NCBI GenBank assembly: GCA_048882325.1 | Contig: JBHLRS010000028.1 | Span: 1 to 21,578 of the forward strand | DNA: 21,578 nucleotides | DNA from: Candidatus Thorarchaeota archaeon | Lineage (GTDB): Archaea > Asgardarchaeota > Thorarchaeia > Thorarchaeales > Thorarchaeaceae | Direction of reading: 5' to 3' | In this document: positions 7,839 to 13,474 of the stretch, one piece after another | Layout of the letters: each line of letters starts with the position of its first letter | How positions within the stretch are numbered: the first letter of the stretch is position 1 | Notes under the pieces: generated by a model | The model's input: the letters and a program-made list of their open reading frames with translations, nothing else | What the model was told of the DNA's origin: nothing | Databases searched by the model: none | Made by a program: the position numbers and the translations under genes

Positions 7839-8912
7839 ATGCCTGTAGAACGAGAAAGCGAAGCAAAGACCAAGAAGATAACATCCCTCCTCTCAATCTC
7901 TCACGACAAGGATGTCGATGGATTAAACGCTGCCGCTATTGTTTGGAGATATGCAAAGGCAAAAGGTCTCGACTTCAAGGCTATGCTCACTGACTATGGT
8001 TCATTCGAACAAGTTTTCTCAGCTATAGGCAATCAACGTGACACCCTCATTATCATCACAGATCTTGGCATGGATGATACCATCATCGATTTTGTGGAAA
8101 CAGGACTGACCAGAGCCATCTCTCAGGGTTGTCGCATAGTATGGCTTGACCATCATCAGTGGACAGACCGTTCAATCAAGATGATCCTCTCTCTCGAAAA
8201 CAAACCAGTTTTGAAGGTCAATCACGAGTTCTGTGCAGCCGAGATAGCTCACAAGGTCCTTATGCCACGAGATGAGGTGTGTACTGAACTAGCTAGAATC
8301 GCGCATGACACGGACTTCAACCTCCGCGAGATTGAGGCTGCTACTGCACTCACTGATGCTGTGAGCGTCATCCGCTTTGGAGCAATCGATAAGAAAGAGG
8401 ATGTGACTGATGCACTATACCCGGTTCTCTCAAAGTTGGCTGAGAGTGGAATGAGTGGAGTCTGGGACAGCAATGCCCGTAAATTCAAAGACACACTTCT
8501 TCACAAACGCGTTGAGAACTACAGAAAAGAGAAGACCAAGAAGATGAGAAAGGCCCTAGCTGGTCATAACGACCAGGTCATCCACGGGAAGCTTGTAAGA
8601 ATTGTAGAGATCCCCAGTGGCCTTACTTCAACTGATATGGGTACGTTTGCTTCGAATCCAGAAAACTTGACATCAATTGATCCTGAGCTTATGGTTGCTG
8701 ACCTCTTACTCTCCCTGAGTCAGGGAGGAATGCTTGGTTTCAGACGAGGTCGGGATGGCGTTCTGTGTAATGCAGCTGCTAAGTTGTTCAATGGAGGTGG
8801 GCACCCATATGCAGCGGGTGGTGAGTATGGTCTCTATGAAGACTTTCAAGCAGTCAGTGCTGATATCTTCCTAACACTGTCAAAAAGCAAGGCATGGGTT
8901 TCTGAAGCTTAA
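7839..8912 (+). CDS. DHH/DHHA1 family phosphoesterase (NrnA/RecJ-like)
   Basis: Motif I HDKDVDG, motif II ITDLG, motif III WLDHH, CAA/HDTD, and DHHA1 GGGHPYAAG. Confidence 0.88.
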   Translation: MPVERESEAKTKKITSLLSISHDKDVDGLNAAAIVWRYAKAKGLDFKAMLTDYGSFEQVFSAIGNQRDTLIIITDLGMDDTIIDFVETGLTRAISQGCRIVWLDHHQWTDRSIKMILSLENKPVLKVNHEFCAAEIAHKVLMPRDEVCTELARIAHDTDFNLREIEAATALTDAVSVIRFGAIDKKEDVTDALYPVLSKLAESGMSGVWDSNARKFKDTLLHKRVENYRKEKTKKMRKALAGHNDQVIHGKLVRIVEIPSGLTSTDMGTFASNPENLTSIDPELMVADLLLSLSQGGMLGFRRGRDGVLCNAAAKLFNGGGHPYAAGGEYGLYEDFQAVSADIFLTLSKSKAWVSEA

Positions 8913-9874
8913 GCTGCTGGGCTTTCATGCGTCATTTGCTTTATGATATCCAGAATATCAACACTTGTTTCCCATAATTCGTCAAATGTCTTGAGTGCAT
9001 CATCAAGAAGACCAGGGTTGTCCTTTCTGTGTATAAGTGCAGCCACGTCTGACTCCTTTGCATGAGTTAGATAAAGTAACATCTTGTCTTCATTGAGGCT
9101 TACAATTCTATATGTATTGACAGGTTCCGGTGAGATTCTCAGACCTATGTTTCCTGTTTGCGCAGCCTGTTCGAAGGCTTTTGCCATAGGCATTAGATGC
9201 CTTGCCATTATTTCAAGATCAAGTTTGTCTTGTGTGTGAGGAGTTAAAAGACCCAAGACCTTTACTCCACGAAAACCAGCCTGAATGAGTCGTAGCTCGG
9301 TCACACCACCGGGACCAAGTCCTTCGGCTAATGTACTGGTATGACCGAGGACTCTGACAACATCCCCGGGTTGAGCTCCGTCTGCAAATTCCCTGATGAT
9401 GGTGCTTCTTACGTTCTCCACACCCTCGATAATTCCTGATTCTTCAATTGATGACACGCCAGCTAGTTGCTTGTGTAACATGAGTGCGAGATCTTGACTC
9501 TTGACAAATCTTAGTCGATTCATCATCGTTGTCAGTTCCTGTCTCCGTTCAAGACTCTCTGACAATCTTTCTTTCCGTTTCACTTCAAGAGCATTTGCTA
9601 CACTGGATTCTACAACTGCATAAGTCCTTGGAGAATGGATGTCATCTATAACAATTAATCCGCTCTCTTCCAGGTCTCTCAACCTTCGATAGATGTATGC
9701 CTTCGTGAATTTCTTGTTCGCCAATGACTCGAAACTGGCGGCAATCTCAGTGTAATTCACATACTTGTCCGTTCCACCAGCAGCAAAAAGAACTGCACGA
9801 AAAACTTGCATCTCGCTTGAATCCATATCTATTCCAATTTTCTCAAGATTGTTTTGGAACTTCTTGGTTGTCAT
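8909..9874 (-). CDS. TrmB-like regulator paralog 3 (wHTH + coiled coil + PLD-fold-like effector domain)
   Basis: HTH YTEIA...KAYIYRRLRDLEESGLI, PRTYAV wing, heptad segment, and C-terminal NPGLLDDALKTFDELW. Start reassigned to ATG 9874 (MTTKK), behind a GGTG site and just after the upstream stop; 321 aa. Confidence 0.7.
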   Translation of the reverse strand: MTTKKFQNNLEKIGIDMDSSEMQVFRAVLFAAGGTDKYVNYTEIAASFESLANKKFTKAYIYRRLRDLEESGLIVIDDIHSPRTYAVVESSVANALEVKRKERLSESLERRQELTTMMNRLRFVKSQDLALMLHKQLAGVSSIEESGIIEGVENVRSTIIREFADGAQPGDVVRVLGHTSTLAEGLGPGGVTELRLIQAGFRGVKVLGLLTPHTQDKLDLEIMARHLMPMAKAFEQAAQTGNIGLRISPEPVNTYRIVSLNEDKMLLYLTHAKESDVAALIHRKDNPGLLDDALKTFDELWETSVDILDIIKQMTHESPAA

Positions 9875-9878
9875 TTTC

Positions 9879-10823
9879 TTACACCTTATATTGCAACAAG
9901 TCAGTGCCCTGTTCAAAGTCTGCATCGAAACTATCAATCGCGTTATCGACCAATTCCACATTTCCGCTTCTTGGTAACCATGTAGCTGATAATGGACTCT
10001 CTGAAACAATTAGCACTATGCCATCACGATTCCGGCTCAGGAATTGATACGTAGCATCAGGTCGCGGGAATACCTTATACTCAACAATTCCACCACTGTC
10101 AGTAAATCTCTTAACTATCTCTCTCATACCCGGGCGAAACCCATTTTCTCCCCTATCGTGGTCAAGAGCTCGTAACACTATACCTTTCTTCAAAGCATTC
10201 TCGATGTTGAGTACTCTCTTTGAGCTTAGATAATCTATCTGAGACAACCACTCAAGTTTTATGCGAACAACATCTCCTTTCTTGAGATTGTTCCATATCG
10301 TACTATCAAGTAGTTTCAGGATGTTGTCCCATCCTTGAGCAAAGACTGGTTTCTCGATCCTCTTGTCCCCAGCTGAAAAATCAATCAATCCTATAGCCAT
10401 CTGGTCGGTGTTCATCTCTGATAACAATGTCACTTCATTATCAATTTCTCTCAGCCCTTTTTCCATTTCCTTGAGATTTTGAGTCACAATTCTTGCCAAT
10501 GCCTTCTCCAACAAAGCTATGCTAGAGTTGTATCCATGTTTGTGACCACCTTTGTCAATCTTGAGAAATCCATCCTTTTCCAGTTTCGAGAGAGTTCTGT
10601 ATATGAGCGGGTCTTTACCTTTTCTGGAACCTTCCTCTTTCTCAAGTTGCTCACGGAGTGTTTCGAAATCGACAAAGTCTGTAGGCTTTTTCTGAGCCTT
10701 GAGGAGCGCCCCAAGAATTACCATGTCTTTTCTGGTCTTGTCTAATCCAAATGTTTCAAGTAACTCCTCATGTCTTGACTCAGTTGCCACTCGTGTGTCC
10801 CCCACTCTCACTAATTTACCCAT
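9879..10823 (-). CDS. TrmB-like regulator paralog 2
   Basis: FETLRE...PLIYRTLSKLEKDGFL wHTH, coiled coil, and C-terminal ATWLPRSGNVELVDNAIDSFDADF. ATG 10823 follows GGTGA and overlaps the upstream stop by 8 nt. Confidence 0.7.
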   Translation of the reverse strand: MGKLVRVGDTRVATESRHEELLETFGLDKTRKDMVILGALLKAQKKPTDFVDFETLREQLEKEEGSRKGKDPLIYRTLSKLEKDGFLKIDKGGHKHGYNSSIALLEKALARIVTQNLKEMEKGLREIDNEVTLLSEMNTDQMAIGLIDFSAGDKRIEKPVFAQGWDNILKLLDSTIWNNLKKGDVVRIKLEWLSQIDYLSSKRVLNIENALKKGIVLRALDHDRGENGFRPGMREIVKRFTDSGGIVEYKVFPRPDATYQFLSRNRDGIVLIVSESPLSATWLPRSGNVELVDNAIDSFDADFEQGTDLLQYKV

Positions 10824-11844
10824 TTTCACCTTGGAACAGCTTACTAATTAGTCCTCCGGGTTCCCCTCCCAGAGCCTGAATCTCCTCTGGTTTCAGGTCT
10901 AAGAACGACTTTGCCTTCTTCCAATCCCTATCAAAAGCCTTGACTGCATTGTCAATCAAATCAGGATTGAACTCTCTTGTGATCCATGTGGCTGTCACAG
11001 GATTCTCTGCGATTATTAATGCCATATTGTCATTGTTCAGACTTACTTGATTGTATGTTTTTGGCCCTGAATATATGCGAAAGTCAATCTTCAATCCTTT
11101 CCTCTTTAGATCTACTATAGAGCGTAGAACTCTTCCCGCTCTCTCGAAGTCGACTTCGCGTTGTAAAAGGCCTCCCATCTTGAATATCTCGGTTGACATA
11201 AGGTATCTGACATCAGTCCCTCTGATTGCGGCATCTAGAAACTTCTGTGTCCGATCAAGAATACCATGGTCTAAGAATGGCCCAAACCAAAGCATTGTTG
11301 CTCTTATTATGTCTCCCTTCTTTGCCACATCTAGCATATTGTACTTGAGCACCCTGTGGAGTTCGTCAACCCCCCTCACAATTCGTGAACTTATCTTCTG
11401 CTGGGTCCCTGTGACATTCTTGACTAACTGCTGGGCAAGATCACCGCATTCTAAATTATTGATGAGCTCTAAGGTTTCATCAATCTCCGCTTTCTGTGCT
11501 TCTAGTTCCTTGATTCTTTTGCTCTTGAGCTGCTCCAACCCCGCCATGACAGTGTTAACATCTGCGATGTAGCGTTTACGAGTTGAAGTTGGACTCTCTA
11601 ATCTCACCAGCTGAACATCCACCAGAGACTTTAGCACTCTGTGTATCCACGCCTTTGTCAGCTTTGATTTTGGGTTCTCTCTCAGTAACTCGTCGTAGAT
11701 ATCTCCAAACGTTAAGGGGATTGGTGGATCAGATTGCAGCTTGAGAATGACAGTCAGCAGGTTCATTAGTCGTGACTCTTGCCGTTCTCCTGTTGTAAAT
11801 CCGCATAGCTCTAGGGCTCTTATGACATCAATCTCTTCCGACAT
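10816..11844 (-). CDS. TrmB-like regulator paralog 1
   Basis: TFGDIY...KAWIHRVLKSLVDVQLV wHTH, RKRYIA wing, coiled coil, RGTDVRYL, and C-terminal ATWITREFNPDLIDNAVKAFDRDW. Start taken at ATG 11844 (MSEEID). Confidence 0.72.
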   Translation of the reverse strand: MSEEIDVIRALELCGFTTGERQESRLMNLLTVILKLQSDPPIPLTFGDIYDELLRENPKSKLTKAWIHRVLKSLVDVQLVRLESPTSTRKRYIADVNTVMAGLEQLKSKRIKELEAQKAEIDETLELINNLECGDLAQQLVKNVTGTQQKISSRIVRGVDELHRVLKYNMLDVAKKGDIIRATMLWFGPFLDHGILDRTQKFLDAAIRGTDVRYLMSTEIFKMGGLLQREVDFERAGRVLRSIVDLKRKGLKIDFRIYSGPKTYNQVSLNNDNMALIIAENPVTATWITREFNPDLIDNAVKAFDRDWKKAKSFLDLKPEEIQALGGEPGGLISKLFQGENG

Positions 11845-11916
11845 CGCACATGTTCCTTCTACCCACCTTTGGGTACTACTTAAAAACATCGGTTTACTAA
11901 CTTTATGACTGTATAC

Positions 11917-11941
11917 AACCGCACCATATATATATGTGGTT
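11917..11941. promoter_or_regulatory. TATA element (ATATATATA) bracketed by inverted repeat AACCGCA/TGTGGTT; candidate ncRNA promoter and operator
   Basis: AACCGCA-CCATATATATA-TGTGGTT (1 mismatch between arms); the TATA lies ~25-30 nt upstream of the first hairpin at 11959. Confidence 0.5.
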
Positions 11942-11958
11942 AACCCTGTTAAGAATTA

Positions 11959-12111
11959 GGCAGCTGTCCGCTGCTAACTCCGGGTGGATGCTTCACGGTA
12001 ATCCACAACGGGCATGATACAGGGCACGCCGGGAATCACCCCGGCCATGAAGCAGGGTGGCGCGGGGGGGTGTCCCCTGCTTCTACTCCGTGATTCTCTC
12101 TCACCTTTTTT
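11959..12111 (+). ncRNA. Candidate structured non-coding RNA (~150 nt, four hairpins), family unknown
   Basis: GC-rich intergenic island with stems at 11959-11975, 11984-12006, 12028-12045 and 12049-12083. Extension of three stems needs G.U pairs available on the + strand. Upstream TATA and downstream T6 (12106-12111). Confidence 0.6.
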
Positions 12112-13339
12112 AAAGACCGCTCACAGCGATTGCTCGAAGGTAGCCCACACCGATCTTCATCACCATGGGGAGGAAGTCTGACATGAGGGTCATGATGGTC
12201 CCGATGCTAGCGTTCCCCTGAATAAGCTCGTTTAGGGTTCGTGCATCCAGCTGTGCTAGCACGATCTCCGCAGCCGCAATCGGATCGTTGAACATAGCGT
12301 ATTTTGACACAGCCCACATACCCTTACCCGTATTAGTGATGTTGTTGGCTAGTTGCGTCTTTCTATACTCTTTCTCGTACTGCTCCACACTCTTCTTCGA
12401 GAAGTCGCCTGAGTCTACCATCCGTTTTGCATGCTTGGCTAGTACCTGACCAGCATGAAAACAGGTTGTCACGCCTCCGCCCACAATGGAAGAAACTTGG
12501 CCAGCTGAGTTGCCGCACAACGCAACTCCAGTATCAGTGAACTTTGGTATGATTCCAGCGCAAGGTACAACTCCACCGTTGACCGCTGCAATCTTTGCAT
12601 TCTGGGTTTCAGGGTGTGTCTTCATGTACTTCTTCAGGACGTCCTTCATTGGTGGAAGGGCATGCCAATTGGCTTTTGATGAAGGGACCCGGCCAATTCC
12701 GAGATTAATCTCTGACTCAGATCTCGGGTACAACCAGAGGTAACCGAGGCCAACATCCTTGCCAACGTAGAAGTACGCGACATCTGGATCGATTCCTTTG
12801 CAACCTGTCAGCTTGAATCTGTACCCATAGCTGAGTAGCCATTTTGGATGTGTGAATCCAGCAGTCTCAGAAACCCTGCTGAATGCACCATCAGCTCCAA
12901 CTGTTAAGCTTGCCCGTTCTTCCTCCGTCCGATTGTACTTGACACCTACAACAGACTTGCCCTCCTTGATAACTGAACCTACATGAGACTTGTATCTGAA
13001 CTCAGCACCATCGGACATAGCACGGTCTCGCATGAGTTCCTGACACAGATTCTCATCGAAGAGGTATGAGTTCCCAAGAAGTGATCTATCGACTACAATG
13101 TTGGACCCGGTGTCTAGACTCTCGCCAATAATCGAGGTATACTTGTTCCCAATAAACTCCGAGTCTGGCTTGACCCTCAACAGTCGCAGGGCCTTGTCAG
13201 TGACTAACTCTCCCATGAGAGAAGAAGTAACATCCTTACGCTTCTCCAGCACAAGAGTCTTGAGGCCATATCTGGCTGTGTGTTCAGCAGTCATGAGTCC
13301 AGCTGGACCTGTCCCAGCAACAATCACATCGTAAGTCAT
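12110..13339 (-). CDS. Geranylgeranyl reductase family FAD-dependent oxidoreductase
   Basis: YDVIVAGTGPAG Rossmann motif, VGADGAFSRV, GYLWLYP (GGR YxWxFP-like) and GNSAGQV...GGG. Start ATG 13339 (alternative GTG 13372). Confidence 0.85.
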   Translation of the reverse strand: MTYDVIVAGTGPAGLMTAEHTARYGLKTLVLEKRKDVTSSLMGELVTDKALRLLRVKPDSEFIGNKYTSIIGESLDTGSNIVVDRSLLGNSYLFDENLCQELMRDRAMSDGAEFRYKSHVGSVIKEGKSVVGVKYNRTEEERASLTVGADGAFSRVSETAGFTHPKWLLSYGYRFKLTGCKGIDPDVAYFYVGKDVGLGYLWLYPRSESEINLGIGRVPSSKANWHALPPMKDVLKKYMKTHPETQNAKIAAVNGGVVPCAGIIPKFTDTGVALCGNSAGQVSSIVGGGVTTCFHAGQVLAKHAKRMVDSGDFSKKSVEQYEKEYRKTQLANNITNTGKGMWAVSKYAMFNDPIAAAEIVLAQLDARTLNELIQGNASIGTIMTLMSDFLPMVMKIGVGYLRAIAVSGL

Positions 13340-13474
13340 CGTATGGTGCTCCGTGAAGATACTCGAGTCCACTATGTATCATCTATATCTCTTTCTGAGT
13401 GGTCTTGCCTCGTGCCAAACCTATAATACAAAGTCAAAAGAGGAGGCGAGAATAGTCTTCCAGAAGGGTTGATA

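Follow-up and report, generated by a model that had tools for sequence, protein, structure and literature searches.

Several bacterial sRNA genes (OxyS/oxyR, GcvB/gcvA, and SgrS/sgrR) are transcribed divergently from their own regulator. RsaE/RoxS and RNAIII of Firmicutes, as well as sRNA41 of Methanosarcina mazei, mask ribosome-binding sites with unpaired C/U-rich motifs. In archaea, the approach of Klein et al. 2002 reportedly treated ncRNAs as G+C-rich islands in A+T-richer genomes, and Hgc families are said to be represented in Rfam. Asgard archaea are the closest prokaryotic relatives of eukaryotes. To our knowledge, almost nothing is known about their ncRNA beyond the universal RNAs.

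We analyzed a 21,578-nt stretch of DNA from a Candidatus Thorarchaeota archaeon (contig JBHLRS010000028.1, positions 1 to 21,578; the window). A 265-bp gap between two minus-strand genes is the site of a plus-strand RNA gene (Table 1). Taken together, the data make it very probable that this stretch is a real, independent ncRNA gene of ~150 nt with a defined structure.

The locus resembles the OxyS/oxyR, GcvB/gcvA, and SgrS/sgrR loci in that an sRNA gene with its own predicted promoter and terminator stands back to back with a transcription-factor gene, and in that a conserved putative control region is common to the RNA and regulator genes. However, the promoter here is of the archaeal type (TATA box), the regulator corresponds to three TrmB/TrmBL2-like paralogs, and sequence or structure homology is absent. 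As in RsaE/RoxS, RNAIII, and sRNA41, unpaired motifs (CUCC and UCUCUC) complement the SD consensus of the organism. In contrast to these RNAs, the molecule itself offers a G-run loop as a possible pairing partner of the CU motifs; cmscan finds no similarity to them, and masking is predicted here from motifs. Like the RNAs sought by Klein et al., the Thorarchaeia RNA is intergenic, forms stable hairpins, and is rich in G+C (61% in the RNA region vs 44% in the genome), but it belongs to the lineage Thorarchaeia and does not match the Hgc families. Clean comparative support and a fixed partner operon make the locus a testable entry to RNA-based regulation in Asgard archaea, and the covariance model allows annotators to fill a now blank gap with a real gene.

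Table 1 Features of the RNA gene and its surroundings (positions in the window).
Feature	Position	Strand	Remarks
First TrmB-like gene, divergent neighbor	10816-11844	-	Start probably ATG 11844, not 11889
Three TrmB-like paralogs (triplet operon)	8909-11844	-	Fold match of first gene
27-bp block TTACTAACTTTATGACTGTATACAACC	11894-11920		Near-invariant; directly upstream of the TATA box of the RNA
TATA box ATATATATAT	11926-11935	+	Center ~28 nt before H1
RNA gene as modeled	11959-12111	+	Predicted start ~11956-11959; predicted 3' end inside the T-run
H1, 6-bp 5' hairpin	11959-11975	+	Arms 11959-11964/11970-11975, loop UGUCC; sequence and loop variable
Joiner AACUCCG	11976-11982	+	Near-invariant; CCG 11980-11982 pairs with CGG 12009-12011
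H2 hairpin	11984-12006	+	Arms GUGGAU 11984-11989/AUCCAC 12001-12006, inner GCU/GGU
Conserved single strand CGGGCAUGNUACAGGGC	12009-12027	+	GGCAUGUU part kept across genera
H3 hairpin	12028-12045	+	Arms 12028-12033/12040-12045; variable, dispensable; loop often A-rich or GNRA
H4	12049-12083	+	Lower stem GAAGCAGGG/CCCUGCUUC; most conserved part of the RNA
Pyrimidine-rich 3' tail	12084-12105	+	ACUCC ... UCUCUCUCACC
T6 run, archaeal oligo-T terminator (by sequence)	12106-12111	+	Overlaps the convergent GGR stop codon by two bases
GGR gene, FAD-dependent geranylgeranyl reductase family, convergent neighbor	12110-13372	-	Pfam FAD_binding_3 and GGR_cat

Helices and possible tertiary pairings of the RNA

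The RNA is composed of four hairpins (H1–H4) connected by single strands. All four had been proposed in the initial annotation, and each can be read directly in the sequence where it was placed. The conservation among relatives starts at 11957-11960 in BLAST alignments, i.e. at the foot of H1. Covariance models match the RNA at 11959-12110, with 179 bits for a first model made from seven close sequences and a hand-drawn structure (R1) and 155 bits for a second model made from 37 sequences (R2).

The joiner that follows H1 and the strand that follows H2 form a short helix (CCG 11980-11982:CGG 12009-12011), which encloses H2 and is kept in other genera as CCA:UGG and via G-U pairs. The conserved strand at 12009-12027 is unique in the genome, and its ACAGGGC segment is kept only in the genus of the window. 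H4 consists of a lower stem (arms 12049-12057/12075-12083), a bulged U at 12058, and an upper stem (GGCGC 12059-12063/GUGUC 12070-12074) with two G-U pairs. The loop of H4 is G6 (12064-12069), and the apical G-run spans 12064-12070. The motif ACUCC is present twice, at 11977-11981 and at 12085-12089.

The RNAfold centroid contains the same four hairpins. The minimum free energy is -64.4 kcal/mol (z -2.53), which is equaled by 1 of 200 shuffles; the minus strand folds worse (-57.2, z -1.84). This single-sequence folding statistic is modest, and the weight lies in conservation and covariation. In an alignment of 22 sequences, 22 of the 39 pairs change on both sides and 95.6% of the cells are paired; in an alignment of 37 sequences, the corresponding values are 35 of 39 and 93.0%. 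Both alignments were fitted to the covariance model, which favors the model in these counts. None of 500 shuffles reaches the observed covariation in either alignment, and controls with slid partners leave 34-50% of the cells paired in the 22-sequence alignment. Among the 37 homologs, pairs that change on both sides are distributed over all hairpins (H1, 6/6; H2, 8/9; H3, 7/7; H4, 11/14). Compensations are also visible in the raw sequences, as GUGCG/CGCAC and AUGG..CCAU in H2, C-G to U-A in H3, and C-G to A-U, A-U to U-A, and G-C to A-U in H4. RNAalifold recovers H1–H4 unaided. The original proposal had called for a covariation analysis of homologs, and in the analysis made here all helices covary.

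The helices contain 105 G-U as opposed to 8 A-C pairs, and the plus strand is thus fixed. The assignment to this strand had been made earlier from G-U pairs in H1, H2, and H4, and the homologs bear it out. When the 22-sequence alignment is read as the minus strand, pairing falls from 95.6% to 83.9%.

Two tertiary pairings that had been suggested from the single sequence fare less well. A pseudoknot between the H1 loop and the following strand (UGUCCG/CGGGCA) can be drawn, but none of its pairs changes on both sides, all 500 shuffles do as well, and it clashes with the covarying CCG:CGG helix. Pairing of the H1 loop with the second GGGCA (12022-12026) gives the same result, with no pair changing on both sides and no advantage over shuffles. 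A switch between GGGCAC and GUGUCC can likewise be drawn, but it does not covary, is no better than shuffles, and involves two segments whose conservation ends at the genus. An all-against-all search of alignment columns for further pseudoknots returned scattered single columns and no stacked run.

A different pairing is suggested by four other genera. In g3, g5, g7, and g8, a C-run located 30-40 nt past the H4 loop complements the G-run, including lineage-specific flanking bases (GGGGGCG/CGCCCCC, GGGGGGCU/GGCCCCCC, GGGGUG/CACCCC, and GCGGGG/CCCCGC). These sequences suggest that the H4 loop pairs with the pyrimidine-rich 3' tail in these genera. A swap of loops and tails over all genera gives no general advantage to the cognate combination (-13.95 vs -13.67 kcal/mol, mean z 0.17); the signal is restricted to the four genera named above. 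In the genus of the window, the tail contains only CUCC, UCUCUC, and CAC, in addition to the U-run. Given this tail and the lack of a cognate advantage, we can only infer a loop–tail pseudoknot for the RNA of the window.

Known RNA families and distribution among Thorarchaeia

A cmscan of the entire window against Rfam 15 gives no match at gathering score. With permissive filters, the region 11850-12200 gives a sole match, to RF02937 Clostridiales-2 (11.6 bits, E 6.8). A GC-rich hairpin with a G-rich loop does align, but the gathering score is 58.6, the family is bacterial, and the match extends into the neighboring gene. We regard it as a chance match. ARAGORN finds no tRNA or tmRNA gene in the window. 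In the literature searched, we found no description of such an RNA, nor of any lineage-specific structured Asgard RNA. The initial annotation had been unable to assign the RNA to a known class and had called for a search of Rfam; after that search the RNA still appears novel.

Individual classes can be discarded on more specific grounds. Archaeal SRP RNA (RF01857) and archaeal RNase P RNA (RF00373) give no match here, and the genome carries both elsewhere, the former at the end of contig C25 and the latter on C3 (164.6 bits). The RNase P RNA gene on C3 is full-length; separately, the archaeal RNase P model has a second, weak match at G000:C5:8936-9065 (+) (locus L024; 25 bits, E 4e-5, model positions 38-191). 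A C/D box sRNA would contain a box C (RUGAUGA) close to its 5' end and a box D (CUGA) close to its 3' end, joined in a K-turn. CUGA is absent from the RNA, and its best approximation to a box C is AUGAUAC (12014-12020), where relatives have AUGGUAC or AUGUUAC. An H/ACA sRNA is not indicated either: all hairpins lack a pocket, and the ACA at 12019-12021 is 8 nt past the nearest stem and is not preserved in genus g3. An archaeal SECIS is discounted because the structure is on the strand opposite to the GGR mRNA and the GGR frame is open throughout; in addition, the RNA persists where the GGR gene is not adjacent. Inspection by eye for an HDV-like ribozyme, a Y RNA, a U6-like RNA, or a K-turn finds instead four covarying hairpins in a row and no pairing between the two ends of the RNA, and cmscan is empty for them. 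The conserved AUG (12014) is rejected as the start codon of a small protein, as the frames and their lengths vary (2-47 codons) and the codon is GUG in some homologs; the RNA homologs share no conserved reading frame.

The genome of the window contains one copy of the RNA. BLAST finds homologs in 22 of the 27 same-genus genomes, with identities of 92-70%. Model R1 gives one match each in 24 of the 27 genomes and, in addition, matches in a second genus. Model R2 is positive in 53 of the 86 family members searched, and the positive genomes represent eight genera (g1, 24/27; g2, 2/2; g3, 13/17; g4, 6/7; g5, 4/5; g7, 1/7; g8, 1/1; g9, 1/2). In contrast, R2 finds no match in 125 genomes sampled from 26 other families of the phylum. 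A pattern scan of metagenomes for the H4 arms retrieves two family members among the 80 matches listed, the others being chance palindromes. As judged by these searches, the RNA founds a new family and is confined, as far as searched, to one Thorarchaeia family. A MITE or other dispersed repeat, which the initial annotation had named as an outcome that would overturn its proposal, is disfavored: nearly every positive genome has a single match, and the match is always syntenic.

Conservation is unevenly distributed along the RNA. The fixed parts are AACUCCG, GGCAUGUU, ACGAAG, the lower stem of H4, the G-run of H4, and the pyrimidine tract after H4. The lower-stem sequence of H4 is almost unchanged over eight genera, and the G-run has a median length of 7 and a minimum of 4 among 41 homologs. 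A UCUCUC-type tract is present 3' of H4 in most genera; a few genera have almost no tail ahead of the T-run. H1 and H3 are free to vary in sequence, and G016 and part of genus g3 lack H3 altogether. H2 is missing in some homologs, and one genus has an unrelated hairpin in its place.

Neighboring genes and the shared upstream region

With the exceptions of G009, G024, and G001, every match with readable flanks is bordered by the 3' end of the GGR gene on one side and by the 5' end of the first TrmB-like gene on the other, and each of these RNAs points away from the TrmB-like gene. Matches of 28-40 bits are located in the same gap in the same orientation, and we take these weak matches to be real because synteny is kept. 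In four genera with no significant match, the best sub-threshold match of a filter-free search is at the same site and in the same orientation as well. In G009 and G024, the GGR gene is not adjacent any more, and the TrmB-like gene still adjoins the RNA. In G001, the RNA adjoins the GGR gene, and a TrmB-like match is absent from the genome. The link between the RNA and the triplet is therefore not obligatory.

The longest ORF of the first TrmB-like gene begins at 11889. However, the alignment with orthologs does not begin until residue ~12-25, which makes the ATG at 11844 the probable start. Searches of the three paralogs against Pfam, NCBIfam, and PADLOC give nothing significant. Only a fold search gave them an identity. 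A structure model of the first paralog (pLDDT 83.6) has full-length matches to TrmBL2 (E 4e-11) and TrmB (E 4e-7), and in this model the first gene of the triplet is predicted to fold like TrmBL2/TrmB. The earlier statement that the RNA is divergent from a TrmB-like triplet agrees with this fold match and with the arrangement in all readable flanks except that of G001. Of 26 genomes sampled from the family, 24 have the triplet, as opposed to none of 125 elsewhere.

All four neighboring genes are on the minus strand. The GGR gene scores below the cut-off of TIGR02032 (139 vs 159 bits). At 12106-12112, it has no oligo-T of its own past the stop codon; the shared run reads A6 on the GGR strand. 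Transcripts of GGR may run antisense into the RNA gene. In four loci of genus g3 (L090, L098, L086, and L104), the C-run of the RNA coincides with the terminal Gly-Gly codons of GGR (GGG GGG on the other strand), such that the RNA would overlap the GGR coding sequence there.

The initial annotation assigned the RNA its own promoter and terminator, and comparison among genomes points in the same direction. An A/T-rich octamer lies at an equal distance from H1 in all genera (ATATATAT, TTATAATA, TTTAATAA, and AATATAAAG), and the spacer between the TATA box and H1 is not conserved. Most homologs from the genus of the window have a T5-T8 run at the position of T6. Judged by sequence, the RNA gene has the promoter and terminator expected of a trans-acting base-pairing sRNA, in the form of a TATA-like box at about -28 and a terminal oligo-T. 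We infer that transcription starts from this promoter and ends at T6.

The 27-bp block directly upstream of the TATA box is nearly identical within the genus and recognizable in genus g3. No other copy is found in the genome, even at six mismatches. The block is a candidate operator and/or core promoter for the divergent operon that is shared with the RNA gene. It is non-coding and contains two small palindromes, TTACTAA and TGTATACA. A further palindrome (TACCCA-CCTT-TGGGTA, 11860-11875) precedes the ATG at 11844 by ~15 nt. In relatives, the arms read TACTCA..TGAGTA, both having changed jointly, and an SD-like GAGG follows. This palindrome could be a leader hairpin or an operator.

Possible functions of the RNA

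The 3' end of 16S rRNA was found neither in the genome nor, in a pattern search, in 28 genomes of the genus, and the anti-SD was deduced from the regions upstream of start codons. The SD consensus in this organism is GGAGGUGA, with GGAGG, AGGTG, and GGTGA enriched at -16 to -4. The G-run of H4 (GGGGGGGUG) resembles this consensus (GGAGGUG), and the motifs of the tail and the joiner (CUCC and UCUCUC) resemble the anti-SD. The CU-rich tail is conserved, as is the CUCC joiner, and both match the SD consensus; such complementarity to purine-rich SD sites is generic.

These features are consistent with a trans-acting regulator. The RNA would be transcribed from its own promoter and would terminate at T6. 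Via the shared 27-bp block, it would have its regulation in common with the divergent TrmB-like regulators or be under their control, and it would act in trans on mRNAs. Its working parts would be the near-invariant H4 with the G-run, in addition to the pyrimidine-rich tail and joiner. The tail would mask ribosome-binding sites, and intramolecular pairing of the G loop with the tail would leave the tail either hidden or exposed. In its broad form, as an independent structured-RNA gene that is co-regulated with the TrmB-like operon and acts in trans, this explanation is plausible, and we hold it with slightly more doubt than confidence. The specific form, an SD/anti-SD-type riboregulator co-controlled with the divergent TrmB-like operon, is only tentative. 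Several points weigh against this reading. The combination of fixed joiners and one fixed stem with otherwise free helices fits a protein-bound or tertiary-folded RNA at least equally well as a seed-pairing sRNA, the tail is almost missing in a few genera, and G001 has the RNA but not the triplet. Adjacency together with shared distribution reflects one locus inherited once, not independent functional evidence. If the RNA is an ordinary riboregulator, the gain is modest, namely one more sRNA family.

Nearly as likely as the trans-acting riboregulator, and itself more doubtful than probable, is an RNA that serves as a scaffold or ligand of a protein complex, e.g. as a decoy or cofactor of the TrmB-like proteins or of another RNA-binding protein. 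The partner would recognize the G loop together with the H4 stem, which is fixed, and the joiners, which are conserved. In accordance, the lower stem of H4 is near-invariant over eight genera even though compensated changes are tolerated, and the joining strands are conserved around H2 and H3, which are dispensable. The tight linkage and co-distribution with the triplet would be expected as well, and the possible loop–tail pseudoknot would make a compact 3' domain. However, no K-turn, Sm-site, or other known protein-binding motif is recognized in the RNA, the TrmB family is known for DNA binding, and G001 has the RNA but not the triplet. A tertiary-folded ligand sensor or catalyst (an orphan aptamer or ribozyme) could explain why the RNA has several helices and invariant joining nucleotides as well as a candidate pseudoknot, but we think it improbable: the riboswitch and ribozyme models all remain without a match, no helix closes the row of hairpins, two of which (H2 and H3) can be lost, and no same-strand gene lies downstream to be regulated.

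A role in cis is unlikely too, if a little less so than the sensor or catalyst. Transcription toward GGR, or antisense to GGR read-through, would insulate the TrmB-like operon or tune the 3' end of GGR. The geometry is suitable, with four neighboring genes on the minus strand, the RNA convergent with GGR, the T6/A6 run shared with the GGR stop codon, no visible oligo-T for GGR, and, in one g3 subclade, the C-run of the RNA inside the last GGR codons. Nevertheless, four helices covary although interference does not depend on a conserved structure, and the RNA is kept where GGR is not adjacent. There is very little chance that the conserved feature is a minus-strand element (the 3'-UTR of GGR, e.g. 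a SECIS, or the 5' leader of the TrmB-like operon), a DNA palindrome, or a mobile repeat. The flanking genes are indeed both on the minus strand, and the arms of H4 also form an inverted repeat in DNA. However, the helices lose pairs when read as the minus strand, and the T-run and TATA box suit the plus strand; the GGR ORF lacks the in-frame stop that a SECIS would lead one to expect; the variable length of the H4 loop and the G-U pairs of its upper stem do not fit a DNA palindrome; and one copy per genome does not fit a mobile repeat.

A more far-reaching possibility, which we consider unlikely, is that the RNA and the three TrmB/TrmBL2-like paralogs are one lineage-specific module. A heteromeric DNA-binding or chromatin complex of the TrmBL2-like type would have the RNA as its physical partner, be it a cofactor, a decoy, or a guide, and the G-loop/tail pseudoknot would serve as a switch. 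If the RNA is a partner of TrmBL2-like proteins, it would represent a new type of archaeal ribonucleoprotein, and a partnership with a TrmBL2-like complex would mean that an Asgard archaeon has a regulatory or chromatin particle with an RNA component.

The RNA copy that is found with no triplet belongs to the same genus, in a genome that is 97% complete (locus L050, G001:C4:69414-72567). It has a G12 run, and its tail is not CU-rich. These features may reflect relaxed constraint after loss of the triplet.
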